From Planctomycetota bacterium (GTDB lineage: Bacteria; Planctomycetota; Brocadiia; Brocadiales; Scalinduaceae): a stretch of DNA of 32,000 bases. Of the stretch, positions 1,809-15,730 are shown piece by piece. Positions within the stretch are counted from its first letter, which is position 1, and each line of letters begins with the position of its first letter. Below the pieces are notes generated by a model, which saw only the letters and a list, made by a program, of their open reading frames with translations, had not been told where the DNA came from and did not search any database. The DNA lies in NCBI GenBank assembly GCA_022570935.1, contig JACZYU010000005.1, positions 4,891-36,890 on the forward strand, in the 5' to 3' direction. Both the position numbers and the translations under genes were made by a program.

Positions 1809-3512
1809 CTAACTACCCGACATAATTACGTCTGATTCTATTCCTTCCGGGGAGCCTTTGATGTTTCTTCTGAAAAGTGCCTGCATTCCACTGGAGGCCT
1901 TGGTGGATAATCTGGAACCAAAATCCTCATAGATAATAATACCTTCAACATCCGGCAGTTTTTCAATGAGTTCCATACCCTTCTCCAGCCCCAGGACAAA
2001 TACTCCTGTGGAAAGTGCGTCTGCCCTGATCGCATTGCCTGCAACTATTGTCACACTAACGATGCCCTTAACGGGGTTGCCGGTCCTTGGATCGATTATG
2101 TGTGAATACCGCTCGCCATCAATAGTAAAGAATTTTTCGTAGTCACCGGAAGTAGATACGGCTTTATCTCTAATCTCAAATGAACCAAGGAGCCCCTCGC
2201 TCTTGCGTGGGTGTTGCAGACCTATAACCCATGAATCTTTCCCCGGAGGCGCTCCATACGCATAAATATTTCCAGCGAAGTTTATGAGTGCAGAATTTAT
2301 TCCGTTTCCTTTAAGTACCCTGGTTGCCATGTCAACAGCATAACCCTTTCCAATCCCGCCCAGATCAATCTGCGTACCGGAATTCCTGAAGTATATAGTC
2401 TTTACAATACTCGGGTCACGGAAGAGTGACTTTTTAACTCTTTCTTCAATAATAATGTTTTTATAAGAAACTGATTCAAGCGCTGATTTCAGTTCTTCTT
2501 TACCTGGAATTCTTCCCTGCTCCTTGAAAAATCCCCACTTTTTCATGAGAGGGCCTATTGTAATATCAAAGGCGCCATCAGTAATATCACTATACTGTAA
2601 AGATTGTTCTATTACGTAAGCAAGCTCGTTGTCACAGATGGTTGGTTCCGATGCGGCATTTTTATTAACTTTCGACAGCTCGCTCTCCTCTTTATAATTG
2701 CTCATCAGGTAATCAAGCCTGTTAATCTCTTTGAATACGTCATTGAATGCTTTTTCAGCTTTATATTTGCCTGCAACATAGGCGGAGACCTCAAAGAGTG
2801 TTCCCATGCTCAATGCCGCCTTTTTGAATAGTGTTAATTCCTGCTCCCGGCCTTCATCGCTAAACTTCACCCTTTCCATGGAAGCAATATTATCTGTCCT
2901 TTTACCGCTTAAGTAGAATTGATCAATGACGGTAAGCACCTTCTTCACTCCCGTACACATAGTAACAACAGACATGGTAGCCCCTGTTATATTAATGATG
3001 TCCTTATTGATTCTTAGAGGGTTCTTAAGGGTCTTGCCCTTAAATTGGTAAAGGAACCTCTTCTTTGCAATCTCAGCGCCCCTGCTTTCACGGTAAACGA
3101 GTATGGCTATCTCCCTGATCTTACCCTTCGGACTCACAGATACTATGAATGTATAAGGATGGAACTTGCCAACCTCCTCGGTAATTATTGCATATCCCGT
3201 AACCTTGCCGGATTTAATGCCTATGTATGTGATAAAACTGTTTTCATATATCTTCCGCTTTAGTCTGTTCTGAAGCACTGTCTTGCTCTCATCAGTAAGG
3301 ATTATCTTGTCATACACTATCTCATCACAGTCCGGAAGCACCTTCAGCAATGCCTGTTCTTCCGTCAGGAAAACATGGGGTTGATAATTCTCCACCGGTT
3401 CTAGCTCAAAGCCCGCCTGTGCATGGCACGTAGAAGTAATTGCAAACACCAACGCCGGTATCAATAAATAAACGTTTACTCTTCTCATTTTCAATAAACC
3501 TAACCTAGACAA
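1809..3512 (-). CDS. Secreted FMN_bind-domain + ApbE flavin-transferase fusion protein (paralog 1, catalytic motifs intact)
   Basis: 567-aa ORF. The likely true start is ATG 3488 (MRRVNVYLLIPALVFAITSTCHA signal peptide); TTG 3512 abuts a repeat module. The N-half carries the RnfG/NqrC/NosR-type flavinylation motif INITGATMS (TGAT codons 2976-2987). The C-half carries ApbE signatures MGT, IDLGGIGKGYAVD, STSGDYEK and SHIIDPRTGNP (2073-2102). Confidence 0.8.
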   Translation of the reverse strand: MSRLGLLKMRRVNVYLLIPALVFAITSTCHAQAGFELEPVENYQPHVFLTEEQALLKVLPDCDEIVYDKIILTDESKTVLQNRLKRKIYENSFITYIGIKSGKVTGYAIITEEVGKFHPYTFIVSVSPKGKIREIAILVYRESRGAEIAKKRFLYQFKGKTLKNPLRINKDIINITGATMSVVTMCTGVKKVLTVIDQFYLSGKRTDNIASMERVKFSDEGREQELTLFKKAALSMGTLFEVSAYVAGKYKAEKAFNDVFKEINRLDYLMSNYKEESELSKVNKNAASEPTICDNELAYVIEQSLQYSDITDGAFDITIGPLMKKWGFFKEQGRIPGKEELKSALESVSYKNIIIEERVKKSLFRDPSIVKTIYFRNSGTQIDLGGIGKGYAVDMATRVLKGNGINSALINFAGNIYAYGAPPGKDSWVIGLQHPRKSEGLLGSFEIRDKAVSTSGDYEKFFTIDGERYSHIIDPRTGNPVKGIVSVTIVAGNAIRADALSTGVFVLGLEKGMELIEKLPDVEGIIIYEDFGSRLSTKASSGMQALFRRNIKGSPEGIESDVIMSGS

Positions 3513-3913
3513 GTCATGCCTGAGGCAGACTCGCTGTGGCGAGCCAGTACCAAACAGGAGTTAATAAATTACAAATCTCAAAAAACAAATCTCAAACAAA
3601 TTTCAAATTACAATGTCCGCCTGCCTGTCGGCAGACAGGAATGACCAAAAACCAGACTTCGGCGAGTTCAGTCGATCCGTTTGCTCGCCATGTTAAATAT
3701 ATCTTTATATCTTTGTATTTTATTGGTCTTTATAAAAAATGCAACTTTTGGAAGTTATTGTAAAGACCTCATCCAAATAATTTAACAGGGTAAAGAATTT
3801 TGGGTTTGTTTATTGGGATTTGTTTGCTATTTGCCTGCCTGCCGGCAAGGCAGGGAATTTGTTATTTGGTGCTTATCAGATATTATGCAAAACTCAATAA
3901 ATAAATATTTTGC
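3513..3913. repeat. Composite intergenic repeat region built from modules found elsewhere in the window
   Basis: 3513-3545 (GTCATGCCTGAGGCAGACTCGCTGTGGCGAGCC) matches the flank modules at 8440-8520, 17871-17957 and 22258-22356. 3550-3583 matches 11421-11453 and 3857-3913 matches 11477-11533, both nearly exactly. GC hairpins CCTGTC/GACAGG and CCTGCC/GGCAGG are present. ORF 3536..3763 lies wholly inside this repeat DNA. Confidence 0.75.
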
Positions 3914-3976
3914 TCTCCGAGGCGTAGTCTCTACGAGACGGAGTCCAAAATTGGTCAAAAAGATTTTATTAAAATA

Positions 3977-4474
3977 TTAGCCGTCACTAAGAATTTCTTC
4001 GATCCTCATGAGAGCCTCTTCTTCTCGCTCTCCTGTAGACTTTTTCCTCTCCCATCTGTATGCAGCGCTGCCTCCCCTTGCTTTTTCCTGAACCTGACAG
4101 CTTACCTTTACGGAACTGATCAGATTATTACCGGAAATCCTGAATGTAATCCGATATCTCTCTTTCCAGTAATCATCAAGGAACCGATCTGTCATTATAC
4201 TTCTTGCCTTCCTTTGCGAGAAACCTTCAACCCAGCCGGTTTTGATTAGACCTTTTTCCTTATTTATTTTGTCCAGGGGCAAGTCGCCCAGTGACATAAG
4301 AACCGCCGACCACACATCCTCAAAATCTTCGTTAAAAGTCTTTGTATATTTTGAAGATTGCGAACCTGTAGAACGGTCATCATAAGCCTGATATCTTGAA
4401 GAAGTACCAGGCAGGGTACATCCTGTTAAGCAAAAAAGTAATGGTATTAATAATAATATTTTTAAGGTGGACAT
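3977..4474 (-). CDS. Putative lipoprotein (function unknown)
   Basis: 165-aa ORF starting at ATG 4474. The N-terminus MSTLKILLLIPLLFCLTGC is a signal peptide with a lipobox (LTGC). The rest is a soluble domain; no family is confidently recognised. Confidence 0.65.
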   Translation of the reverse strand: MSTLKILLLIPLLFCLTGCTLPGTSSRYQAYDDRSTGSQSSKYTKTFNEDFEDVWSAVLMSLGDLPLDKINKEKGLIKTGWVEGFSQRKARSIMTDRFLDDYWKERYRITFRISGNNLISSVKVSCQVQEKARGGSAAYRWERKKSTGEREEEALMRIEEILSDG

Positions 4475-4616
4475 AATATTGCAAAAAAGTTTTTGGTTGG
4501 TGAATGCTAACAGAGGCTATATATTTCTGTCAAGCAATTATCAGGATCCTGTGTGTTGGGAAGCTAATCTTGAGTTGTTTACAAGGGCGACTTTAACGGC
4601 TGCTCGCAACAGGGAT

Positions 4617-4658
4617 GGGTGCACTGCGAAAGGAGAAGGAAAAAATTACAGTGCACCC
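4617..4658. other. Perfect 10-bp-stem hairpin, function unknown
   Basis: GGGTGCACTG (4617-4626) pairs with CAGTGCACCC (4649-4658) across a 22-nt purine-rich loop. It lies 77 nt downstream of the TPR gene stop (4735, minus strand). There is no clear U-tract on the minus strand. Confidence 0.5.
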
Positions 4659-4734
4659 ATTTGTGAAAGATTTTAAGGCTCTCTTTACTTAGTTAACATA
4701 AAAACCGCCTGATTAGTTCCATTTAATTTTTATT

Positions 4735-5714
4735 TTATCCTGCTGCCTTTTCAAGATTGGATTTTGATGATTCTACGATTATCTCTAAGATGTTTTTTAA
4801 GGAATTATCCTGTGGGTATAAACGTAATGCCTCTTTGATCAATTGAGCGGATTCTTCGCTCCTTCCTTCTTCTAAAAGCATAACAATCAAGTTGTAAAAA
4901 ATGGAGGCGCCTTTTTGGCCCAGGTTTATGGCAATCCTGTATTCATCTACCGCTTTTGCTTTTTCACCTGTTTCTATATACAAATTTGCAAGCGCTATAT
5001 GTGTAGACGCTTGTTTTGGTTCTATCTCAATGGCCTTTTCATATTCCCTCAGGGCTTCGTCCGGTTTAAGTTCCTCAACATAAATACTTCCCAGTAGTAA
5101 ATGAGCTTTAGCATAATCAGGTTTCTTATCTATCGCTTTTTGTAATGTTTCCTGTGCGGAAAGATTTTCTCCTCCCATGTAATAGGCATTACCGAGCCGA
5201 TAGAGATCCTCTGCTGAAACATCTTGTGAGGATGCTATATAACCCTGATAAAACAAGGCAGCCTCTCTGTGCATATTATTATTTAAATATAAATCCGCTA
5301 TGCTCCGTTTGAGCTCTGCACTCCCAACACCCAGCCGTTGCGCAGTTTCAAAGGCATCTATGGCATTATTGTATTCTCCTTTATCCAGATACAGATTACC
5401 AATATCAATAAGAGTTTCTGTCGCACCAGGCCATACCTGCAAGATATAACCATATACTGCAAGCGCATCTTCAAGTTTGCCATAATTACGTAATGTTGAG
5501 GCCAACTGCAGATTTGCTTCCTTCGATAGTGGAGCTAGTGTAACTGCATTTCTGTAGGCGCATAAGGCTCCTTCGCTATTACCCAGGCTTTCGAGACAAA
5601 TGCCGATTGAAATAAAAAGGCCGCTATCAAGTTCCGGAGGTTTGGATATCTTTTGAAACGCCTGTAACGCATTTCTATAGTCCTTATCTGGCAAATACGT
5701 GGCGTGTTTCATGA
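4735..5714 (-). pseudogene. TPR-repeat protein, C-terminal part of a gene split by an IS insertion
   Basis: ORF-track entry 4735..5724 begins with VYDVM, which is encoded by the IS terminal repeat. Host sequence starts at KHATYLPDKDY. The remainder consists of multiple TPR units (for example AYRNAVTLAP, AIDAFETAQRLG, ALREYEKAIEIEP). Confidence 0.8.
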
Positions 5715-7101
5715 CATCGTACACACTTTTTGTTTCACGAGATCGTACACAGATTGTATATTTCCATAAGGGAGGATATACAATGGATAAAAAAAAGTAA
5801 AACAGTTAATGAAGAAATTAATTTACGAGAACTTTGTATTAAGCTATACAATGAAGGTAAAAAACCAACAGAAATCTCCAGGAGCTTACGTCGTACACGA
5901 AATTGGGTCTATAAATGGATAAAACGATATAAGTCAGGAGATCCAAAATGGTATTTAGATGAATCCAAGGAACCAAAGAAGAAGCCGACAAAGGTCGATC
6001 AAGAACTAGAGAACAACATTGTTGATATCCGAAAAAAGTTAGTAAAACGTGACACTCCAGAAACACGATACGCTTTTCATGGAGCAGTCGCAATTCATCA
6101 AGAATTAGATAAATCAGGATATAAAGACAAGCCTAATTTATCAACGATTAACCGTATTATTAAACGAAACGGATTAATTGTAAAAGAGCAAAGGAAAACA
6201 GGTAATAAAGAATCAAAAGTATATTATCCCGGTATATGTACCAGATATCCAGGGCACGTTTACCAACTTGATTTAGTAACACCAAGGTATATTACTGGAT
6301 ATGGGCGAATAGTTTCAGTAAACCGTATTGACGTTTATTCGGCAAAAGCAAACTTAAACCAATACCAATCCAAAGGAGCAGACAGTATTATTAGCTTTGC
6401 CATAGAAGATTGGAGTGAACATGGTATACCACATTACTTGCAATTAGACAATGAAGCGGCTTTTCGTGGTAGCCTGTATCATCCCAGGACATTTGGCAAA
6501 CTGACACGTTTTTGCTTAAACTTTGGTGTAGAATTAATTTTTATTCCATTCAAAGAGCCTTGGCGTAACGGTTATATTGAAAGTTTTAACAGTCGATTCA
6601 ATGAAAACCTCTGGCTCTTTCAGAAATTTACAGATTTAGAGCATTTAAGAAACGAAGCAAAACTATTTAAAGATAAATATAACAACTTTCAAACTTATAA
6701 GAAAAAACACTTTAGCAAACAGTACTTATTTGGATACACAACACGCTATTTCCCAAAGGGATTCAAATTTGATCTTTCAACAGAGTTACCTATTACTAAT
6801 GGTAAAATCCATTTTATAAGACTTGTTAATGAAAAAGGCTATATTAATGTCTTTAATGAAAATTTTTACATTAACAAAGATTTTAGTTTTGAATACGTAT
6901 GGGCAACTATTTTTACTAAAGAACAATTGTTAAGATTCTATTACCAAGCAACAAAAGATTCTAAAGAAGAATTGATAAAAACTGTTGCTTATAAACTCAG
7001 GGAGACTGTAAAAAACAGAATGCCTGTTAAAAAGTTTTGCTAAAGTGTGTACGATGTCATGACACAGCTAGTAGCACTAAGAAGTGTGTACGATGTCATG
7101 A
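5709..7101 (+). mobile_element. Insertion sequence with an rve-type DDE transposase (IS481/IS3-superfamily-like), including flanking TCATGA copies
   Basis: Left end TCATGA-CATCGTACACACT (5709-5727) is the inverted complement of right end AGTGTGTACGATG-TCATGA (7083-7101). The palindromic hexamer TCATGA sits at both junctions (5709-5714 and 7096-7101). Subterminal copies of the end sequence lie at 5735-5752 and 7044-7062. The element carries a single transposase ORF. Confidence 0.85.
5730..7043 (+). CDS. DDE (rve/integrase-core) transposase with an N-terminal HTH
   Basis: 437-aa ORF. The HTH-like segment is KPTEISRSLRRTRNWVYKWIKRY. The candidate catalytic triad lies in YQLDLVTP, LQLDNEAAFRG and PWRNGYIESFN. 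The SD-preceded ATG at 5783 is one nucleotide out of frame across an A8 run (5789-5796), so the true start and intactness are uncertain. Confidence 0.8.
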   Translation: MFHEIVHRLYISIREDIQWIKKSKTVNEEINLRELCIKLYNEGKKPTEISRSLRRTRNWVYKWIKRYKSGDPKWYLDESKEPKKKPTKVDQELENNIVDIRKKLVKRDTPETRYAFHGAVAIHQELDKSGYKDKPNLSTINRIIKRNGLIVKEQRKTGNKESKVYYPGICTRYPGHVYQLDLVTPRYITGYGRIVSVNRIDVYSAKANLNQYQSKGADSIISFAIEDWSEHGIPHYLQLDNEAAFRGSLYHPRTFGKLTRFCLNFGVELIFIPFKEPWRNGYIESFNSRFNENLWLFQKFTDLEHLRNEAKLFKDKYNNFQTYKKKHFSKQYLFGYTTRYFPKGFKFDLSTELPITNGKIHFIRLVNEKGYINVFNENFYINKDFSFEYVWATIFTKEQLLRFYYQATKDSKEELIKTVAYKLRETVKNRMPVKKFC

Positions 7102-7522
7102 AACTTGGCAAATACGCACTACCCAGGTATCGCACCGGTTTCAGGTTTTCGGGTTCGATATCTAAAGCCTTGGCATATGCCCCAATTGCGTCATCTACCC
7201 TGTCTTGCATCATCATATAAACATGCCCCAGGTTAATATAGATACCTGCAGTTTCTTTCTTCGCTAACGCAGACACATAAGCAGATTCAGCATCAGACAA
7301 TCTATTTCCCCTATACGCTTCATCCCCTTTCCTGACGAGTTCAGAGTAACTGCCTTTCATTTTAGTCTGGTTTTGATAAGTCTCTGCTATGACTACAGAG
7401 TGATATTGTAAAATCACAATAAATAGTAAAAATAACAATCTGATCATCCGGCAGCTTTTTTCAGCCGCTAAGACCAAAAGGCACAAAATTTCCTGTTTCT
7501 TGTCCATAAATTTCCCATCCAA
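7096..7522 (-). pseudogene. TPR-repeat protein, N-terminal part of the IS-split gene
   Basis: ORF-track entry 7040..7522 ends in MTSYTLLSATSCVMTSYTL, which is encoded by IS sequence. The host part ends ...PVRYLGSAYLPSF. It contains a signal-like segment MIRLLFLLFIVILQYHSVVIA (alternative ATG 7447) and TPR-like units. Confidence 0.75.
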
Positions 7523-7643
7523 TTACGCGCAATTCTTTGAATTACCTTACTAAATTACACAATTATCATCTTTACCTCTTTACCCCAATCTACAATCGTC
7601 AATCATCAATTGACAATTGTGAGCAAAGCGAACTAAGTCCTAA

Positions 7644-8315
7644 CTACAATCCTTTCAAATTAAAAGAGATTTTCTGGATGCACCATACCGCCACAGGCTT
7701 CCCAAAGTATGTCGCAGGCTTAAATCGCCACTTTAAGACAGTTTCCCTGGCGGACGCCCCAAAACCATCAAACCCGTATACGTCTAGTACCTGCACACTC
7801 GAAACATTACCTTTTTCATCCACCATAAACTGTAATGTAACATCACCTTCAATCCGTTTAGTTCTTGCGTAATATGGATAAGGAGGCTGGATATGATAAA
7901 TTTTATGTGGCGACTCATCTACCTCCTCCAGTTCGAGTATTTGTCTGTCTTTGGGGCTTGCTTCAGAAAAGTAATCTGCCTGAAATACCAGGTCAGCGTC
8001 AGAAACATTAAGTGATGGTTGAACATTAATATTTAATACCCTTCGTGGTTTCATCTTTTTCTGATTAAGAGAAACCATTTTTAGCCTCAGTTTTTTCTTT
8101 TTAATCTTTTCGACAGGTCTTTCCTTTGATTTCTTACGATTAAGTGTCTTCGGTTCTTTAGGCTGTATTTGAAAAACCTCTATAGCCTTCAGTTTATCCT
8201 GCACATCTTTTAGTTCAGGTGTCCTGTTCATGGATACCAGAACCAGGAAAAACAGAAGGTTCAACCCCAAAGCGCTTAAAATTATCCATATGTTTTTTCG
8301 TCTAAATCCGGCCAT
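7644..8315 (-). CDS. tonB: TonB-family energy transducer
   Basis: 223-aa ORF with an N-terminal TM anchor (IWIILSALGLNLLFFLVLV) and a Lys/Pro-rich spacer. The C-terminal TonB domain reads PPYPYYARTKRIEGDVTLQFMVDEKGNVSSVQVL...KWRFKPA. The classic SxxxH motif is not evident in the TM helix. Confidence 0.8.
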   Translation of the reverse strand: MAGFRRKNIWIILSALGLNLLFFLVLVSMNRTPELKDVQDKLKAIEVFQIQPKEPKTLNRKKSKERPVEKIKKKKLRLKMVSLNQKKMKPRRVLNINVQPSLNVSDADLVFQADYFSEASPKDRQILELEEVDESPHKIYHIQPPYPYYARTKRIEGDVTLQFMVDEKGNVSSVQVLDVYGFDGFGASARETVLKWRFKPATYFGKPVAVWCIQKISFNLKGL

Positions 8316-8331
8316 GATATTAAATATGTAG

Positions 8332-8359
8332 GTTGGGTTTTAAAAGACAAAAACCCAAC
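8332..8359. other. 10-bp-stem hairpin immediately upstream of the tonB start
   Basis: GTTGGGTTTT (8332-8341) pairs with AAAACCCAAC (8350-8359) across an 8-nt loop. On the plus strand it is followed by GACTTTTTA. On the minus (coding) strand it ends 16 nt before the tonB ATG. Confidence 0.45.
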
Positions 8360-8439
8360 GACTTTTTACGCCACTATGGAGTGCATTGACCGCCTGTCCG
8401 CCAGTTTATTGGGCAGGTGTCAATGCTGTCATGTCACCT

Positions 8440-8647
8440 GTCATGCCTAAGGCAGCCACCAGAGGCGCCCCTTGGAGCAACTTCTAGGTCCGCCACAGGC
8501 GGGATCGCTGTGGCAAATAGATTTACTGATGTAAACATCGTCACGCCCGTCTGCCATCTGTCGGGCAGGGACGATGTACTCCAAAACTTATTGTCTCGGA
8601 AACTTTGTGACAACTTTGAAATTCCGTGTCTTTCCGTGGTAAACTTC
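8440..8647. repeat. Intergenic repeat block filling the exbD-tonB spacer
   Basis: 8440-8520 aligns along its length with the reverse complement of 22262-22350 and shares modules with 3513-3545 and 17871-17957. 8618-8647 (GAAATTCCGTG...GTGGTAAACTT) recurs at 18141-18160. ORFs 8417..8719 and 8434..8649 lie in this repeat DNA. Confidence 0.75.
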
Positions 8648-9005
8648 AAAGCTCCTTTTTTGATGCTACCGAGATTCTATCAGCACCTGCCAGCCTGCAC
8701 TCATCCATTACGTCTATGAGAACTCCTGTTTGAGACCCTTTATCGGGCACGATTACAACAGGGCTGCCAAGACGTTCTCTGAGCCTTTTCTCTACCAGTG
8801 AACGAAGGGTTAAAATGTCTATCCTCCGCTGTTCAAACCAAATCTCTCCTTCAGAAGAAATCCCTATCCTCATATTCTCTTTTTCCAACGATTCGGCAGT
8901 TGTAGCCTTCGGCTTCTTGACCTGGATCCCTGTTTCCCTGACAAATGTAGTTGTCACAATAAAAAATATCAGGAGGATAAAGACCATATCTATGAGAGGG
9001 GCCAT
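8646..9005 (-). CDS. exbD: ExbD/TolR-family protein with a truncated or damaged 5' end
   Basis: 119-aa ORF MAPLIDMVFILLIFFIVTTTF..., that is, the conserved PLID TM segment only 2 residues after the start. The periplasmic domain ends ...VVIVPDKGSQTGVLIDVMDECRLAG. The same frame upstream reads DTKGIN before the ATG and is then closed by TAA (9024-9026). Confidence 0.7.
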   Translation of the reverse strand: MAPLIDMVFILLIFFIVTTTFVRETGIQVKKPKATTAESLEKENMRIGISSEGEIWFEQRRIDILTLRSLVEKRLRERLGSPVVIVPDKGSQTGVLIDVMDECRLAGADRISVASKKEL

Positions 9006-9484
9006 GTTAATTCCTTTAGTGTCTTATTTTGTTGTTGTCTGCGGCTGGAAGGGGGAAGAGTCTTTACCAGTCCATAAAATTCACCTGCAGCCCCGCTTAA
9101 TAATGTATGTACCTGATTCAGGATTTCCTCTTTCCGTCCGGCATCATCTTTAAGGTGGTTGACGGTTTTTTCTGCGCTAGACATAGATTCCTTTTGTCTT
9201 TTTACGGAAATCTTTAAATCTATAACGGCATCTGAAAGTTTATCTCGTTCTGAATGGAGTTTATAAACAAGCCCCTTCAGTCTTTCTTCCTCTTTTGAGA
9301 TTCTGATGCTCTCCTGCTTGAGTTCTTCTTTCGCCTGGGTAATAGCCTTTGTCAATTGCTCCAATGCTGAATTTCCCTCATCCGCATGGAGTGTAAAAGT
9401 GAAAGTCATGCTAAAAACCAATGTTAATATCGTGTAACAAATGATCGTCTTTAGGTGTAAAATGATGTGCGTTTTGCTATTCAT
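8990..9484 (-). CDS. Signal-anchored coiled-coil protein, possibly the N-terminal stub of a long MotA/ExbB (TtpC-like) protein
   Basis: 164-aa ORF with a hydrophobic N-terminus (IICYTILTLVFSMTFTFTLHA) followed by a heptad-rich coiled coil. There are no channel TM helices. Its last codons (SSRRQQQNK..., 9005-9049) resemble an ExbD cytoplasmic tail in a frame offset by one from exbD. Confidence 0.4.
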   Translation of the reverse strand: MNSKTHIILHLKTIICYTILTLVFSMTFTFTLHADEGNSALEQLTKAITQAKEELKQESIRISKEEERLKGLVYKLHSERDKLSDAVIDLKISVKRQKESMSSAEKTVNHLKDDAGRKEEILNQVHTLLSGAAGEFYGLVKTLPPSSRRQQQNKTLKELTWPLS

Positions 9485-9566
9485 CTCTTGTCCTTGCTAT
9501 TTAAAACGGGAATTTGTAATTTTGAGATTGTTTCGAATTTCGTGTTTCGTGCTTCGGATTTTGCTA

Positions 9567-10446
9567 TTATTCATCTACGATCCTTACCTGTGAAAAACTG
9601 ACAGGGAAATTTATAATCTCCGGAGGCTGCTGCCTCATGAGGATCTTGATTGACTTCTCAATGATATGACTGGGGACGGCAGAAGAATCATTGACCCATC
9701 CGGTAGCGGCGCTTCCATCGCCATTATTCTTTTGTGTTAACCATACACCGCTATCCTTGCCGTCATCAGTCCTATACGCGAGAACAACCTTCCCCTACCC
9801 GTACAAATTCCGCATGCGGCTCTCTGCCGTCTTCAAGGCGTATATTGTCCCTGTATATCTCGCTTGTAACAGCCAGGCGCAGTTCATCCTTGCAGAAACT
9901 CCATAGCTGATTACACGCCTCTGCAATGTCCATAGGATTTTGTGTAGAAATGCCGTTTGATATTGCATCAAGCTTTGCCGTTCTCTCTTCCAGTTGGAAA
10001 GGGATTCCATTGTTAACCTGTCCTCTGAGAAGTCTCACATGAGAAAGAACATAGTTTGACAGTTCCTCTTCCTTTTCCTTATAACCGGCAATGGCCGTTT
10101 TTAATTTCTCCTCTTTGCCGCCGAGGGTTCCCATTTCATTTTCAATATCCTCTGTTTCGCTTATCAGGTCTTCATGTGTTACTCTCAGTGTTTGAATCTG
10201 TATTCTCAGATCCTGAATTTCCATGTCTTTTTCCTGCTTTCTACTATAGTAGTCCTGCCGTTCTTTACGAAGTGTTGTAACCGTATTCTGTAACTCATTC
10301 ATTAACACCCTGAGCCTGGCGTTGTTATCAATTTGCCCTTTTATGGCTCCTTTATTTGAGAATTGTGCAGCAGCATAAGGCTCATAGCAAAACACAACAG
10401 CAGAAATAATTATGAGCACCAGAATAAATATAAGAGAATGTTTCAT
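9567..10446 (-). pseudogene. DUF3450-like periplasmic coiled-coil protein (TonB-system accessory, TtpB-like), frameshifted
   Basis: The 224-aa ORF (9772..10446) has a signal peptide and a long coiled coil and ends ...EFVRVGEGCSRV*. Skipping one G of the G4 run (9792-9795) gives 74 further open codons (KVVLAYRTDDGKDSGVWL...KSIKILMRQQPPEIINFPV...) to TAA at 9567-9569. This continuation has no start codon of its own. Confidence 0.6.
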
Positions 10447-10474
10447 AACGTCACCTTCCTGACAAAGTAATTTT

Positions 10475-10813
10475 CTAGCGTGAGTTCCTGCAAAATAGAA
10501 ATATTCCTGAAACTGTTAAAGACACAAGGCTGAACCCCAGTATGCACAGCAAAATTCTCTTTAAATTAAAAAAATTAAAATCATGTAATTTAACTACAAA
10601 ATGTCCAAATCTGCGCCGGTTATCCAGTTCTTCAACGACATCTCCGCTATATTTGTCAACGAATATCTCGGTGTTGTGTTTTTTCCAAAATATTTTTAAT
10701 ACAGTGTAAGAACGCTATAATGCATGCGGCACAACTTCTTCAAAAACAACTTGTATATGGCCTCTTGCAGAATGTACACATCTGACAATATCTTCCACGG
10801 AGTAATTATTCAT
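10475..10813 (-). pseudogene. Small PepSY-like domain + C-terminal TM protein interrupted by an in-frame TAG
   Basis: ATG 10813 gives MNNYSVEDIVRCVHSARGHIQVVFEEVVPHAL, then TAG (10715-10717), then the same frame continues RSYTVLKIFWKKHNTEIFVDKYSGDVVEELDNRRRFGHFVVKLHDFNFFNLKRILLCILGFSLVSLTVSGIFLF... to TAG 10475-10477. The pattern ...Y.V......E..VD..SG.V plus an LH motif plus a TM helix is PepSY-like. It is not in the ORF track because both pieces fall below the cutoff or lack a start. Confidence 0.5.
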
Positions 10814-10828
10814 TTTTCAGAGACAAAC

Positions 10829-11278
10829 TTACACAATTATTGCAGTAGCCCTTGATTTCAAACGTATGTGTTTTATATTGAAACCTTTTTTTCTGCAGAT
10901 ATCATTTACAATCTTTTCTGTTTCTCTGTGCTTTATTTCAATAATGTTCTTACACTTTAAGCATACTACATGGCCAATATTATATTGTTCTACTATTTCA
11001 TAAACGTAATGATCCGGGGCGATATCAGTTTTCTTTACTATTCTGTAATCTTCCAGCAATTTTATTGTCCGGTAAAGGGTGCTTTTTGATATGCGGTCCC
11101 TTTTTGCCTGTAAATTGTTATATAATCTGTCAATTGAGAAGTGCTTAATCGTCCTTGAGGTCTCCAGGATTTCCTTCAGGATATGCTGCCTTTCATAAGT
11201 ATAATTTAAACCCTTTGCCCTGAGAAACTCCCTGAACAAGGCTTCTTTGATAAGGTCATTGTCTTTCCGTGGTGACAT
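10829..11278 (-). CDS. Fur-family transcriptional regulator, atypical (metal ligands largely missing)
   Basis: 149-aa ORF with a winged-helix region (ISKSTLYRTIKLLEDYRIVKK) and a dimerisation region typical of Fur. The HHDH-x2-CxxC region reads NIGHVVCLKC, and there is no C-terminal CxxC. Confidence 0.7.
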   Translation of the reverse strand: MSPRKDNDLIKEALFREFLRAKGLNYTYERQHILKEILETSRTIKHFSIDRLYNNLQAKRDRISKSTLYRTIKLLEDYRIVKKTDIAPDHYVYEIVEQYNIGHVVCLKCKNIIEIKHRETEKIVNDICRKKGFNIKHIRLKSRATAIIV

Positions 11279-11420
11279 ATTTTTTTGAAACCTCTAAAAC
11301 ACTACATGAATACCCAGGCGAAATAACTTAAGATTTCACTCTGTGGTGTATGGCGATTGTATTACTCCACAGGGCGGGTTTATAAACGATCTTTGCGCCC
11401 CTGACCCGTCCGAGTCAGAA

Positions 11421-11533
11421 CCAAAAAGGAGTTAATAAATTACAAATCTCAAATAATAATTGGAAATTATTTGCTATTTGTTATTTGGTGCTTATCAGAT
11501 ATCATGCATAACTCAACAAATAAATATTTTGCC
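11421..11533. repeat. Short form of the intergenic repeat seen at 3550-3913
   Basis: 11421-11453 (CCAAAAAGGAGTTAATAAATTACAAATCTCAAA) and 11477-11533 (ATTTGTTATTTGGTGCTTATCAGATATCATGCATAACTCAACAAATAAATATTTTGCC) match 3550-3583 and 3857-3913 with only a few substitutions, in the same orientation. Confidence 0.8.
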
Positions 11534-11562
11534 AAAACTGTCAAAACATTTTTGCGAAGATA

Positions 11563-13245
11563 CTAGAATGCACATGCCTGCCTTACTCTTTGCCGTGATA
11601 TCGGTTCAGCCTTTTGTTCAAAATAAGTTTTTATGCCATTTGATATCTCAACTTCTATACTACCATCGGATCTTTCATAAAGGTCGATCCCCTCAGCATC
11701 AGGTATATTATTGATAAATCCCATATCCTTATTCAAGCCTGACAGGTGAGCGGCGGCGGCGAGGGCATCGGCTTTAAATGCGGTAGGAGCGACTACAACT
11801 GCCTCAAGCAAATTGACGTCAAAAGGTCTTTGCAGATTTGAGTCGGTAATATGGGAATATTTCTTTCTGTTATTTATAAGCATTTTCTCGTAATTTCCTG
11901 AGATTGCGACGGCACCGTTGTTTAAATGGACAAATCCTATGCTTTTCCCCTTATCTTTAGGGTCTGGTATTGCTATTCTCCAGGCAGTATCGCCAGGCGG
12001 GTGTCCTATAACCCTTATAGCGCCTCCAAAGTTAACCAGGGCATGTGATATGCTATGATTTTCCAATACTCTGATAACACTATCTACCACATATCCTTTA
12101 ACTAACAGTGAAATGTCAAGTTTAGTCTGCTCATCTTTGAAAAAGATGGTACCTCCGCCATTCTTGTCTATACCAAGGACTATGTTTTTATAGGTAGAAG
12201 CATTGCGTAAGGACACTATGTCTTCAGATTCACTAAATTTCTTTTTATTCCTGTTTAATGTGTCAGCCAACGAACCTTCTGTTATGTCAAACCCTCCGTT
12301 TGTTATCTTACTATAATGGAGAGAGAATTTGACAATATCGAAAAGTTCTTTGTCGCATGTAATTGGTTTTTTCCATGCCTTTTTATTTATTTTGGATATT
12401 TTGCTATTCTTCCGATCTCTATTAAGTATTTTGTTCAGACGATCAATCTCTTTAAACGCCTCTTTAAAGGCAAGTGATGCATTCTTCTCCGTTGTGCCTG
12501 TTATCAATATGTCTATAATATCACCCATAGAGGGATATGCTTGTGAAAAGATTTTTTGCGTCTCTTCTTCCCCTGCCTGATTCCCTATCCGGCTATAAGG
12601 TGTTGGGCTGATTTCCCGATTCCCCTGTAGATAAAATTCATCCAGGACGGCGCGCATCTTTCTTACGCCACGATTCACACCCCTTACAGACGTAGTGGCG
12701 CCGGTGATATTTATTATGTCTTTATTGATTCGTATAGGATTATTCAGGGACTTGCCTTTGTACTGGTGGAGAAATCTCTTCCTTATAACATCCTTGCCTC
12801 TGCTTTCCCTGTAAATCATTACTGCTACTTGTTCTATCTTCCCATCTGGTTTCATGCTCATAATAAAGGTTATCGGATGAAAGCAGCCCATCTCGTCTGT
12901 TATGATGGCATACTTCTTTATACTCCCATTCTTTTTGCCTGTGAATACAACGAAGGCATCTTCATCAATCCGGGCCTTTAGTCTGTTTTCCAACCTCTGT
13001 TTCTCATCTTGAGTAAGCACAAGGCGATCCACCAAAACCTCGTCACATCCTTTGAAAACGGACGCAATAGCCTCCTCTTCCTCAAGGAATACCTGCATTT
13101 CATAATTATCAGAAGGCTCTACATCATCTATAGTGATTTTCTGCCCTATTATGTAGTCGTACTGTGGGAATGCAACTCTTTGATAAAAGGCTATAACCAG
13201 GATTAAGAAAGGCAAGAAGAGAGAAGTAATAATGCTTAGCTTCAT
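11563..13245 (-). CDS. Secreted FMN_bind-domain + ApbE-like fusion protein (paralog 2, ApbE motifs degenerate)
   Basis: 560-aa ORF colinear with 1809..3512. The FMN_bind motif INITGATTS is retained (TGAT codons 12694-12705). The ApbE signatures diverge: MGD for MGT, LDISLLVKGYVVD for IDLGGIGKGYAVD, AISGNYEK for STSGDYEK, and SHITDSNLQRP (11824-11853) for SHIIDPRTGNP. Confidence 0.75.
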   Translation of the reverse strand: MKLSIITSLFLPFLILVIAFYQRVAFPQYDYIIGQKITIDDVEPSDNYEMQVFLEEEEAIASVFKGCDEVLVDRLVLTQDEKQRLENRLKARIDEDAFVVFTGKKNGSIKKYAIITDEMGCFHPITFIMSMKPDGKIEQVAVMIYRESRGKDVIRKRFLHQYKGKSLNNPIRINKDIINITGATTSVRGVNRGVRKMRAVLDEFYLQGNREISPTPYSRIGNQAGEEETQKIFSQAYPSMGDIIDILITGTTEKNASLAFKEAFKEIDRLNKILNRDRKNSKISKINKKAWKKPITCDKELFDIVKFSLHYSKITNGGFDITEGSLADTLNRNKKKFSESEDIVSLRNASTYKNIVLGIDKNGGGTIFFKDEQTKLDISLLVKGYVVDSVIRVLENHSISHALVNFGGAIRVIGHPPGDTAWRIAIPDPKDKGKSIGFVHLNNGAVAISGNYEKMLINNRKKYSHITDSNLQRPFDVNLLEAVVVAPTAFKADALAAAAHLSGLNKDMGFINNIPDAEGIDLYERSDGSIEVEISNGIKTYFEQKAEPISRQRVRQACAF

Positions 13246-13268
13246 GTAGTAATATCCTGAAAAAAAAG

Positions 13269-13395
13269 TGACTAAAGTGAACTAAAGTGTAAAGTGCCTA
13301 AAGTTAGGAAAAAGGTGGAAATCATTAATTTTTAAATAATACATATTCATTTTCCCCCAACTTTAGTCACTTTAGTTCACTTCACACTTTAGGCA
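13269..13395. repeat. Symmetric array of four 7-10-nt units and their unit-wise reverse complements around an AT-rich spacer
   Basis: Left arm: TGACTAAAG, TGAACTAAAG, TGTAAAG, TGCCTAAAG (13269-13303). Right arm: CTTTAGTCA, CTTTAGTTCA, CTTCACA, CTTTAGGCA (13361-13395). The array lies between the TlpA-like gene and the start of paralog 2, with an A8 run at 13260-13267. Confidence 0.8.
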
Positions 13396-13465
13396 CTTCA
13401 AGCCTGGCTTCGGCGTGAACTCAGCCGAACGGTAGCAGCTATGCAGCGCTGTGTTTTTTGGTTAA

Positions 13466-13981
13466 CTATTTGGCGCTCAAAAGTTTTTCTATTATTTGTG
13501 AAAGTTCATCCTCGCCCACCAAACCGACGTGATTCTGCACAAGATTACGATTCCTGTCGTAAATATGTGTTGTCGGGATTGAACGGATATTATAGTGGAA
13601 ACCGACATCTTCATTGCCCAGATAGACTGGATATTTAATTTCTGTTTTGCCAATAAATTTCTGTAATTTTTCTTTGTCAAAGTCAAAAGAAATGCCGATT
13701 ATTGACAACCCCTTAGATTTATATTTTTTATATATATTTGATAAGACAGGGGCTTGTTTCGTACAAGGCGCACAAAAAGTAGCCCAGAAATCCACGATTA
13801 GAACTTCGCTCTTTGAATTTGTTATTTCATTTTCCAGAAAACCGGCATCAACAGTTTCTATAGTGTTTGCATATAAAGAGTATTCTTGAAATACGGAGGA
13901 TAGACAAAAAGCTGCTATCGGTGTCAATATTAAGAATCTCAGGTATAGATTCTTAATAAGAGAATCAAAAAAATGTATCAT
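13466..13981 (-). CDS. TlpA/ResA-like periplasmic thiol:disulfide oxidoreductase (thioredoxin fold)
   Basis: 171-aa ORF with an N-terminal membrane anchor or signal, the thioredoxin active site WATFCAPC, and the downstream cis-Pro region IRSIPTTHIY. Confidence 0.8.
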   Translation of the reverse strand: MIHFFDSLIKNLYLRFLILTPIAAFCLSSVFQEYSLYANTIETVDAGFLENEITNSKSEVLIVDFWATFCAPCTKQAPVLSNIYKKYKSKGLSIIGISFDFDKEKLQKFIGKTEIKYPVYLGNEDVGFHYNIRSIPTTHIYDRNRNLVQNHVGLVGEDELSQIIEKLLSAK

Positions 13982-14080
13982 GAGATTTTACTCCTATCCA
14001 CTCGTTAATAACCACCCTGGAAATTGATGAGCTTAAAAATGTATCAGAAACTCTAATTCGTCAATAAATATAACTGAGGT

Positions 14081-14112
14081 GGGGCGTTATACGGGGAGGT
14101 GTGTAACGCCCC
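14081..14112 (-). terminator. Candidate intrinsic terminator or hairpin after the porin-like gene
   Basis: GGGGCGTTA (14081-14089) pairs with TAACGCCCC (14104-14112) across a 14-nt loop, about 80 nt downstream of the stop at 14194. On the minus strand it is followed by an A/T-rich tract (TTATATTTATT), not a clean U-run. Confidence 0.35.
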
Positions 14113-14193
14113 TTTCCTTGTTATTGTCTTGCACTTAAACAAAATGGAATTTTATGACACCTCAGTCATAATCGTGTACTCATAAAATTCAGA

Positions 14194-15633
14194 TTAAAAA
14201 TATGTTGCAACTGAAAATAACAACACGTTATTACTTACCTCAGGAGTTGTTACACGACCAGCCTCCCAATTAATCTGATATTCGGCCTTAAAAACGGTAT
14301 CTTCGGTATACCTGAAGTTAAATCCGGGCGTTAAACGAGTCCTTCTTCTATCACCCGCATTTGGTAGTGGTTGATTTACATTAAGTTCTCCCCATCTTAC
14401 TACGGCCGTAAAAGTAGAGTCATCCGTAAAGAAGGTTGGCGCAAGGTCCTTAAAGGTCTGCGGCATAAAGTGGTATCTTGGTTCTATATAATATCCCCAC
14501 ATATCTCCATTATATAGAGCGCTATTTTCAGTGTCATTGTCAAAAGCCCCTTCTCTTTCTATTGATGCATGCGCATATTCTCCAACCAGTTCAAAAGGGC
14601 CTTTCTGATAAGTCCAGTCAAAAGCCTTAATTGTCAGCCTGTTACTATCATGGTCATCTATATATCCCGTATGTACGGAAACACCTAATTCAAGACCAAG
14701 AAAAGGGCTAAACGCTACACGTCCAACAATTGCCGGGTTGCTATTGTTGTCCGACTTTTGACTTCCCCTTGCACTTCTTATAAAGCTGTCTCCGGCACCT
14801 ACAACTCCACTATCATCTGCAGCCGAAAAACCATTTACCGCATAGATTTCGTAGTCAAGTTTTGACATTTCCGTGGGGTAAAATGTACCAAAGAAACCCA
14901 TTCCTGCTTCGCTGAGGGTTGTAGGTATAATCCTTCTATTTACCATTGGCCTGGCTGTCAGGTCCTGGAGGGGCGAATCGTGGACAAGGTTAAACTTACC
15001 GAGAGGGCTCAATATTATGCCTGCACGGTAATTGATCCAATCAGTTATAAGGAAATCTATTGTTGCAAATTCAATCTTTATCTCGCCTTTACTACCTTGA
15101 ATACCACCTGTGGTTTGAGGTCCTCCATCCTCAATCTCCAACTCCATTGCAAACTTTACCCTATCAGACACATCGGAGTAAATAAACGGGATAAGCCTGT
15201 GCTGACGAAAGAAATTTTCACCATTTTCTGTAAATTGAAGCTCCATGTCCATATATCCGCCTAAATAGGTATTTCTGCCAAACCTGCGTAAAAATGGCTT
15301 TCCATATTGTCTACCAAATACCGGCGCAAGGCCTTTGTCACTAAGCTCCTGGGCTTTTTTAGCCCAGTAAAATTCCTCTCCAGGGAGAAGACCTTTTACA
15401 TCGTCCCTCAGGGACTCAAGTTCCTTAGTGGTTTCTGCCTGTTGTTCGAGTTGTCCTTTCAACTCCATAAGCATTTTCTCCATAGCCGCCACCTTTGCCC
15501 TGAGATCCTCGCCAGCGGCTGATACATTCGAACATACAGTACCAAGAAAAAGGGCAGACAGGCACATAAACATAATAATATACTTCTTCATACATATACT
15601 CCTTTCAAAAAAAGTATTTAAAATTATAATCAT
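14194..15633 (-). CDS. Outer-membrane beta-barrel porin-like protein with an N-terminal coiled coil
   Basis: The likely start is ATG 15591 (MKKYIIMFMCLSALFLGTVCSNVSA signal peptide, GAAAGGAG upstream). A coiled coil (LRAKVAAMEKMLMELKGQLEQQ) is followed by alternating amphipathic beta-strand patterns and a C-terminal aromatic residue (...LLFSVATYF), typical of OM barrels. The resemblance to OprO/P-type porins is only a general impression. Confidence 0.6.
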   Translation of the reverse strand: MIIILNTFFERSICMKKYIIMFMCLSALFLGTVCSNVSAAGEDLRAKVAAMEKMLMELKGQLEQQAETTKELESLRDDVKGLLPGEEFYWAKKAQELSDKGLAPVFGRQYGKPFLRRFGRNTYLGGYMDMELQFTENGENFFRQHRLIPFIYSDVSDRVKFAMELEIEDGGPQTTGGIQGSKGEIKIEFATIDFLITDWINYRAGIILSPLGKFNLVHDSPLQDLTARPMVNRRIIPTTLSEAGMGFFGTFYPTEMSKLDYEIYAVNGFSAADDSGVVGAGDSFIRSARGSQKSDNNSNPAIVGRVAFSPFLGLELGVSVHTGYIDDHDSNRLTIKAFDWTYQKGPFELVGEYAHASIEREGAFDNDTENSALYNGDMWGYYIEPRYHFMPQTFKDLAPTFFTDDSTFTAVVRWGELNVNQPLPNAGDRRRTRLTPGFNFRYTEDTVFKAEYQINWEAGRVTTPEVSNNVLLFSVATYF

Positions 15634-15730
15634 TCTTGCGTCTCATCCTCAATTAGTAGTTAAAAAAAATACCTTTATATCTTTAAACTGTTATAACCTA
15701 TTGAGTGATTTTATATTACATACCATTGTC

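Follow-up and report, generated by a model that had tools for sequence, protein, structure and literature searches.

The stretch of DNA analysed here, 32,000 nucleotides long and referred to as the window, comes from a Scalindua metagenome-assembled genome (MAG) of 2.52 Mb in 270 contigs, 82% complete (G000:C191:4891-36890, where G000 is the window's own genome). Between two ApbE/FMN_bind paralogs lie, on the minus strand, the pieces of a gene cluster of the type known as TonB2 in Vibrio. This stretch is very probably the remnant of a metal-homeostasis region and a TonB2-type energising island that is being lost by decay. The features, called by listing of open reading frames (ORFs) and Pfam, are given below from the Fur end; G002 is a relative in the same genus, G001 a small-genome Scalindua, and L036 and L064 are contigs with orthologous loci.

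1809-3512 and 11563-13245: ApbE/FMN_bind paralogs, the outer borders of the damaged stretch.
11305-11566, no strand: repeat-filled spacer in place of a 186-aa HMA_2 gene, between the Fur and ApbE-like genes.
10829-11278, minus: Fur-family regulator with a -1 frameshift (Pfam FUR, PF01475, 93.7 bits).
10759-10813, minus: HMA_2 5' stub of ~18 codons; in relatives this gene comes after Fur, and the match to G001 and G002 stops at 10759.
10677-10758, minus: 82-bp junction filler holding a TAG at 10715-10717 and matching the homolog on neither side.
10475-10676, minus: PepSY_TM 3' remnant, approximately the last 67 codons; in the ORF listing it is part of a small interrupted frame at 10475-10813.
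9567-10446, minus: DUF3450 (TtpB-like) gene with a +1 frameshift (Pfam DUF3450, 49 bits).
9500-9561, no strand: dispersed short repeat in the ttpB-ttpC spacer, with matches in the own genome.
8990-9484, minus: ttpC 5' stub, listed as a coiled-coil ORF of 164 aa; codons 1-159 match TtpC-like proteins of 503-515 aa, after which the frame runs out of frame into exbD.
8646-9005, minus: exbD without its first ~17 codons (Pfam ExbD, 91.5 bits, from profile position 10).
8301-8644, no strand: repeat-rich insert of 344 bp between exbD and tonB, absent from G002, L036 and L064; the called ORFs leave a gap of 330 bp here.
7644-8315, minus: tonB, an intact ORF of 223 aa (Pfam TonB_C, 68.7 bits).
7109-7522, minus: 5' fragment of the tetratricopeptide repeat (TPR; TtpD-like) gene; ORF called at 7040-7522.
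5700-7108, plus: IS481-like insertion sequence (IS) of 1409 bp; ORF 5730-7043 encodes a 437-aa transposase with helix-turn-helix (HTH) and rve_3 domains.
4735-5699, minus: 3' fragment of the TPR gene; ORF called at 4735-5724.

The intact template for these pieces is found in relatives. A TonB search of 40 relatives gave close orthologs in G002 and in 'Candidatus Scalindua rubra' (S. rubra; G022) only. The G002 template is spread over contigs C295 and C212, with the genes on one strand and a P-type ATPase on the opposite strand. It starts with Fur, HMA_2, a DtxR-like gene, three response regulators and a second Fur, followed by a TonB-dependent receptor (734 aa), DUF4198 and PepSY_TM (235 aa). 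Then come DUF3450, a 515-aa protein with a coiled coil at the N-terminus and a MotA/ExbB domain at the C-terminus, ExbB (209 aa), ExbD (137 aa), TonB (220 aa) and the TPR protein (431 aa), and after the TPR gene a lipoprotein and ApbE. The ATG of tonB directly adjoins the TGA of exbD in G002, L036 and L064. The island is also intact on L036 (a single 74-kb JGI contig), on L064 and on the four Hainich groundwater contigs L069-L072, and the same island is found on the GWF2_40_8-type contigs L073 and L074.

Two apparent defects in the relatives were rejected: the genes missing from L073 and L074 are only uncalled in gaps of N, and the truncated ExbD (119 aa) called in L064 and L069 reflects the start chosen by the gene caller, with the full 137-aa frame open. 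Since G002, L036, L064 and L069-L072 carry intact loci, a structure common to the relatives was rejected as well; the synteny comparison that the earlier note on this DNA had proposed as a check thus shows intact orthologous loci and a broken window copy. The genes flanking the locus in the window (the ApbE paralogs, lipoprotein, thioredoxin and porin-like genes) are all full length and 92-94% identical to L036, in agreement with the earlier statement that the window is intact outside the locus. The gene order Fur, PepSY-like, DUF3450 given in that note is present in the window but is secondary, as about 12 kb separates Fur and PepSY_TM in G002.

The likeness to Vibrio TonB2 was judged by gene order and domain content as described in the literature. 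In Vibrio, TtpB2 is a DUF3450 protein and TtpD2 a protein of 425 aa with TPR motifs, and V. vulnificus cannot do without any of the six TonB2 proteins (PMC6957404); the order ttpB2-ttpC2-exbB2-exbD2-tonB2-ttpD2 is also given in PMC10734418, and one review calls the Vibrio TtpC TolR-like (PMC5524678). The order ttpB, ttpC, exbB, exbD, tonB, ttpD on one strand is found in G002, L036, L064 and L069; the window keeps this order, but exbB is absent and ttpC is a stub. The first gene belongs to DUF3450 (PF11932), with 49 bits for the frameshifted copy in the window and 66-89 bits in G002 and S. rubra. The TtpC-like proteins of the relatives (497-515 aa) combine an N-terminal coiled-coil or DUF3450-like part with PF01618 and occur besides a normal ExbB. 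TPR families match both fragments in the window and intact orthologs of 397-455 aa. The top 120 TtpC homologs carry Planctomycetota names or no name.

The Vibrio systems and the intact Scalindua islands are thus alike in the six-gene order, in a DUF3450 gene (~290 aa) placed first and a TPR gene (~400-430 aa) placed last, and in a long MotA/ExbB channel protein followed by ExbB, ExbD and TonB; a Fur gene and a TonB-dependent receptor near the cluster are common to both. They differ in the host, a planctomycetotal anammox bacterium, and in the PepSY_TM and DUF4198 genes that the Scalindua island adds upstream, and of the six genes of the system five are broken in the window. These likenesses support the assignment of the locus to the TonB2 type, as the earlier note had proposed.

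On the Fur side, the site between Fur and the ApbE-like gene measures 262 bp in the window versus ~800 bp in G001, and G001 and G002 both have a 186-aa HMA_2 gene there (G002: L033 13436-13996). The 262-bp spacer at 11305-11566 matches dispersed repeat modules on many contigs, and no HMA_2b match was found in the window's own genome; the upstream 186-aa HMA_2 gene is gone from the window, a loss missed in the earlier note, with dispersed repeats in its place. The Fur gene itself, which the earlier note took as intact, is frameshifted: in protein and DNA alignments with G001 and G002 one A is missing from an A-run (~10885-10892). The last ~27 residues are therefore out of frame and the C-terminal CxxC kept in G001 and G002 is lost, so that the window Fur lacks one of the two Cys pairs of the structural metal site that characterize the family. 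The protein is probably impaired, because in Fur and PerR proteins the C-terminal Cys pair supplies half of the ligands' place in the structural site for Zn.

Downstream of Fur the relatives have full-length HMA_2 proteins of 101-108 aa, of which only the stub is left in the window, and the stub leads through the 82-bp filler into the PepSY_TM remnant. This remnant is 85% identical in amino acids to residues 162-235 of the G002 PepSY_TM, and its DNA match to G002 and S. rubra stops at 10676. A homology search found no source for the filler. The TAG at 10715-10717 is in frame with an ATG at 10813, and the earlier description of a PepSY-like gene with an amber codon holds as far as the TAG is concerned; the reading frame is, however, a fusion of the HMA_2 stub, the filler and the PepSY_TM tail. 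An amber codon in a PepSY gene, whether recoded or a simple nonsense mutation, was rejected, as the TAG sits in non-homologous filler. The G002 counterparts of the two homology endpoints, 10759 and 10676, are 11,979 bp apart. A deletion of ~12 kb, missed in the earlier note, has therefore cost the window HMA_2 and DtxR, the ATPase and the response regulators, the second Fur and the receptor, and also DUF4198 and two thirds of PepSY_TM, and no orthologs of the lost genes were found elsewhere in the own assembly.

The DUF3450 gene matches the 286-aa protein of L036 in two frames (tblastn). The ORF at 9772-10446 covers only positions 19-185 of the 241 in the profile, and the C-terminus (last ~75 codons) continues in another frame to a stop at 9567-9569. 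The five-sequence alignment with four relatives places one extra base in the window, an A at 9796 just before the GGGG at 9792-9795, where the earlier note had predicted a frameshift.

The ttpC stub of 164 aa is 81% identical to residues 1-159 of the TtpC of L036 (P0003). At the DNA level 9007-9404 matches the G002 ttpC up to codon ~160, and 8645-9014 matches exbD from codon ~17. The junction at 9007-9014 thus joins ttpC to exbD, with 1750 bp present in G002 (L013 6544-8293) absent and a microhomology of (T/C)AAT at the joint. A deletion of 1.75 kb accounts for the loss of the 3' two thirds of ttpC, all of exbB and the 5' end of exbD, and both the missing channel gene and the damaged exbD start of the earlier note are recovered in it. 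The ExbD of the window has 119 aa versus 137 aa when intact and is 86-90% identical to residues 16-137 of intact ExbD; the transmembrane (TM) helix and the conserved Asp are retained. Intact exbD is longer by 17-18 codons in all three relatives compared, and the frame in the window is closed by a TAA at 9024-9026, six codons upstream of its ATG.

The TPR gene is split by the IS, at 5700-7108 rather than the 5709-7101 given earlier. Its 3' fragment is 91% identical in amino acids to residues 115-431 of the G002 TPR protein. The IS has inverted ends of ~23 bp, and the 8-bp target CAAATACG is duplicated on its two sides (5692-5699 and 7109-7116); G002 and S. rubra show this site without an interruption. 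The element is present as a single copy in the own assembly, and its nearest relatives are those of S. rubra (86% amino acid identity) and of another genus of the Scalinduaceae. L015, L021 and L022 have the right junction as well; the left junction is seen in the window only and is supported by the target duplication. The perfect duplication makes the insertion look fresh.

Pfam finds HTH_23/HTH_29/HTH_32 and rve_3 in the transposase. The NCBIfam IS481 model NF033577 gave the best score of the four IS families matched, 126 bits, which is below its cut-off of 224. The element resembles the IS481 family in its single long transposase ORF, where an N-terminal HTH is combined with a DDE core of the rve type, and in having inverted ends and a target duplication that are both short. 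It differs in the length of the transposase, 437 aa against the 284 positions of the model, and in the score below the cut-off. Most related copies in other Scalinduaceae have one in-frame stop near the N-terminus of the transposase, and the window copy is open throughout 5730-7043. Expression dependent on frameshifting is possible in this group of IS.

The spacer between exbD and tonB (8301-8644) is a mosaic of short dispersed repeats, parts of which match at least 12 other contigs of the own genome, and it contains a hairpin with a 10-bp stem at 8332-8359. S. rubra has a different repeat-rich sequence at this site with the 20 bp next to the tonB ATG in common with the window, and its TonB has a three-codon N-terminal extension similar to that of the window. 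The spacer may predate the window lineage or have been exchanged. Because S. rubra shares the 20 bp proximal to tonB, the spacer is not counted as a secure lineage-specific lesion; the repeat-filled spacer of the earlier note is an insert absent from other relatives, but not clearly a lesion of this lineage. All five lesions listed in that note are present at or within a few bases of where it had placed them, with the amber codon and this spacer to be read as described. A scan for promoters and terminators gave nothing above chance that would explain expression of tonB, and no known RNA families or tRNAs were found in 3000-12000.

Intergenic spacers are often filled by short dispersed repeat modules in the window, at 9500-9561, 3513-3980, 8377-8583 and 11305-11566. 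The module at 9500-9561 recurs in many genomes across the order, including the complete Brocadiales genomes G037 and G039.

In look-ups of exact sequences, six contigs had the 164-aa stub protein and three had the TonB. The contigs with the lesions come from ERZ27267440, GCA_022571695.1, SRR12887795, SAMN16252658, SAMN16252670 and ERZ24945578, made with different assemblers, and independence is certain for at least two BioSamples. Their identity to the window is 99.8-100% over the frameshifts of Fur and DUF3450, the 82-bp filler, the point where ttpC joins exbD, the exbD-tonB spacer and the right IS junction. It is therefore very improbable that the lesions are artefacts of assembly or binning (chimeric joins, collapsed repeats or homopolymer errors), even though the MAG is fragmented into 270 contigs and two of the lesions are single-base changes beside or within homopolymer runs: the DNA is identical over all junctions in different pipelines and at least two BioSamples, the IS has inverted ends and a perfect 8-bp target duplication, the deletion junction has microhomology, and the flanking genes are intact. 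An error-prone assembly had been thought unlikely from the window alone, and the identical lesions in independent assemblies bear this out.

The damaged allele could also be one haplotype in a mixed population where intact alleles of the same species coexist, the loss being polymorphic and not fixed. Minor strain variation (1-3 SNPs or indels per contig) and a structural polymorphism, the NCBI MAG contig in which a different IS is joined to exbD at 8744, are in favour of this. Yet no intact allele of the same species was found with full-length TtpC and TPR queries against 5.8 billion protein clusters, a collection that includes assemblies of the same samples; the closest full-length TtpC there has 81% identity to the stub, and the closest TPR proteins have ~91-94% identity to the fragments. 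The exact look-ups, too, gave the damaged context only, and coexistence with intact alleles is considered improbable.

The contig with the other IS, L016 (GCA_022571695.1, JACZXI010000314.1), is identical to the window from 9624 to 8744 and continues in the IS inside exbD. This element has a DDE_Tnp_1 transposase of 423 aa, and the own genome has pieces of it at the ends of contigs C89, C72 and C58. The join at 8744 is a chimera or else one more polymorphic insertion.

As encoded, the island is predicted to be non-functional, because the receptor, both MotA/ExbB channel proteins and the start of ExbD are deleted, frameshifts affect TtpB and Fur, and the IS divides TtpD. The ancestral order would have been Fur, HMA_2, DtxR, P-type ATPase, response regulators and TonB-dependent receptor, followed by DUF4198, PepSY_TM, TtpB, TtpC, ExbB, ExbD and TonB, with TtpD last. 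When intact, the island would link a cognate receptor with a motor of the TonB2 type. A first inactivating hit, for which the 12-kb receptor deletion and the ttpC-exbB deletion are candidates, would have made the rest neutral, after which it may have degraded quickly by microhomology deletion, homopolymer slippage, IS transposition and repeat invasion of spacers. The tonB gene would then be the piece not yet hit. Loss of the island may have been tolerated because uptake of Fe(II) by FeoB is present. The suggestion of the earlier note that the locus is being lost is thus supported by the multiple lesions, the intact relatives and flanks, and the identical recurrence in independent assemblies.

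The remaining components in the own assembly are few. An FeoB frame of 770 aa is present, together with one other intact TonB-dependent receptor (C172, 691 aa), one ExbB-ExbD pair (C125) and a further MotA-family gene on C270. The tonB of the island is the only TonB_C gene found in the assembly, and the only gene of the island still whole. No orthologs of the island's receptor, DUF4198, TtpC or ExbB were found elsewhere in the own genome. The count of other tonB, exbBD and receptor genes that had been proposed as a check is accordingly no other TonB_C gene, one ExbB-ExbD pair and one receptor. The C125 pair (G000:C125:18129-20586; L053 4129-6586) is directly followed by an IS110-family transposase and preceded by a 469-aa protein without a Pfam match, the counterparts of which in other Scalindua give faint TonB_C matches; this protein may be a TolA/TonB-like partner.

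The tonB gene is 76-84% identical to its orthologs over the full length. The ratio of nonsynonymous to synonymous substitution (dN/dS) in pairwise comparisons of the surviving pieces, with the rows of the DUF3450 tail left out, is 0.13-0.38, like that of pairs of intact lineages. Changes specific to the window at otherwise invariant sites are 37 nonsynonymous and 32 synonymous, with no excess over other lineages. Neither dN/dS nor these lineage singletons gave a signal of relaxed selection in the surviving ORFs. Because the surviving pieces show no nonsynonymous excess, the lesions appear recent when set against the divergence from the closest intact relative (synonymous distance, dS, of the flanks ~0.21 to L036). 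By our own arithmetic the tonB gene, being ~8% of the damaged stretch, has a chance of ~0.55 of escaping seven random hits; its intactness alone is therefore no evidence of selection.

Rather than dying, the locus may have been pruned, with tonB and perhaps the 119-aa ExbD kept under selection as an orphan, powered by the housekeeping ExbB-ExbD pair of C125 and serving the receptor of C172. The full length of tonB as the sole TonB_C gene, the one intact 691-aa receptor and the one intact ExbB-ExbD pair that remain, and the dN/dS of tonB (0.19-0.27), which resembles intact lineages, speak for this. The truncated exbD also keeps an ATG with an AAGGA-like motif upstream, the TM helix and the conserved Asp. 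In E. coli, TolQR and ExbBD are known to show cross-talk. The intactness of tonB, however, is to be expected by chance at ~0.55 and proves little, and a low dN/dS is expected if the decay is recent. The gene stands behind the 344-bp repeat insert with no recognisable promoter above chance, and small-genome Scalindua manage without any receptor or clear TonB. Vibrio TonB2, moreover, needs TtpB, TtpC and TtpD all (PMC6957404). Pruning is thus rather unlikely, and it is somewhat less likely still that tonB survives by selection as an orphan TonB2-type TonB which uses the other ExbB-ExbD pair for the remaining receptor, without TtpB, TtpC, ExbB or TtpD. If this were true, it would follow that a TonB of the TonB2 type can be re-wired to a generic motor as a genome is streamlined.

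Several points weigh against the decay of the island as the explanation. The missing nonsynonymous excess fits very recent decay and equally well continued constraint on tonB. Several of the corroborating contigs may go back to one study, or even to one set of runs assembled again. The lesions are known from assemblies alone, which leaves room for minority intact alleles. With the MAG 82% complete, a second copy may be missing from the assembly, but other assemblies of these samples do not show one either. Loss by decay nevertheless remains the preferred explanation.

As a case of gene-cluster decay the locus is well documented, mechanistically ordinary and an example of plain reductive evolution. 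As in the pseudogene clusters known from reductive genomes, several mechanistic types of lesion occur in one unit with intact flanks, and relatives show clean loss. Unlike typical reductive genomes, the host is a free-living environmental anammox bacterium and not host-restricted, and the decay seems very recent.

The TtpC-type island is present in only three of the 28 Scalinduaceae species representatives: G000, G002 and S. rubra. In S. rubra (G022 C38:1-4922 and C280:3693-4112) ttpC carries a frameshift near codon 73 and PepSY_TM is broken into two ORFs; the places where exbB and exbD would be expected, 620 bp or more downstream of ttpC and 420 bp or more upstream of tonB, consist of non-coding repeats. 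No orthologs of these two genes were found in the S. rubra assembly, a single assembly in which a short contig may have been left unbinned. The island of S. rubra thus appears to have suffered parallel damage. The small-genome Scalindua G001, G005, G018 and G019 (2.0-2.7 Mb, 87-95% complete) have no TonB-dependent receptor, with no TonB_C match in G019 and only sub-threshold matches in G001, G005 and G018. In G001 and G018 the lipoprotein gene directly adjoins a response-regulator gene, and the whole island is therefore absent at the same site. The island is either ancestral and repeatedly lost or was gained in a subclade.

Anammox bacteria need large amounts of iron, and to our knowledge little is known of iron acquisition in marine Scalindua. 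A six-gene TonB2 system like that of Vibrio appears to exist in some Scalindua lineages and to be dispensable in the genus, being absent from several small-genome species, damaged in S. rubra and in the middle of decay in the window. Several mechanisms would act together in the decay, namely deletion at microhomologies, slippage in homopolymers, insertion of an IS and invasion by repeats. In annotation, the neighbourhood of Fur, PepSY, DUF3450, ExbD and TonB in this MAG should be read as pseudogene fragments and should not be taken for a functional iron-uptake operon.

The synonymous distances are a mosaic. In the flanks (1812-4474) dS is 0.21 to L036 versus 0.49 to G002; in the 3' part of the TPR gene (4738-5691) the window, L036 and G002 are equidistant (0.21-0.24), and tonB is closest to G002. 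This pattern suggests recombination among Scalindua lineages within the island.

Further variation was seen in islands that are otherwise intact. In L071 (Hainich H41 groundwater; 3469-4353) DUF3450 is called as two ORFs (163 + 122 aa) with the rest of the island intact, which may be an independent lesion in another population. The junction of PepSY_TM and DUF3450 attracts insertions (L036 7443-8994, L064 5206-5882 and L073 444-1120), with a group II intron-type reverse transcriptase on one contig and a PIN-RHH toxin-antitoxin pair on two. L015 differs from the window at one position over 6970-15447 and then at ~60 within 220 bp (15448-15669), a stretch that appears to be a local hypervariable or repeat region.

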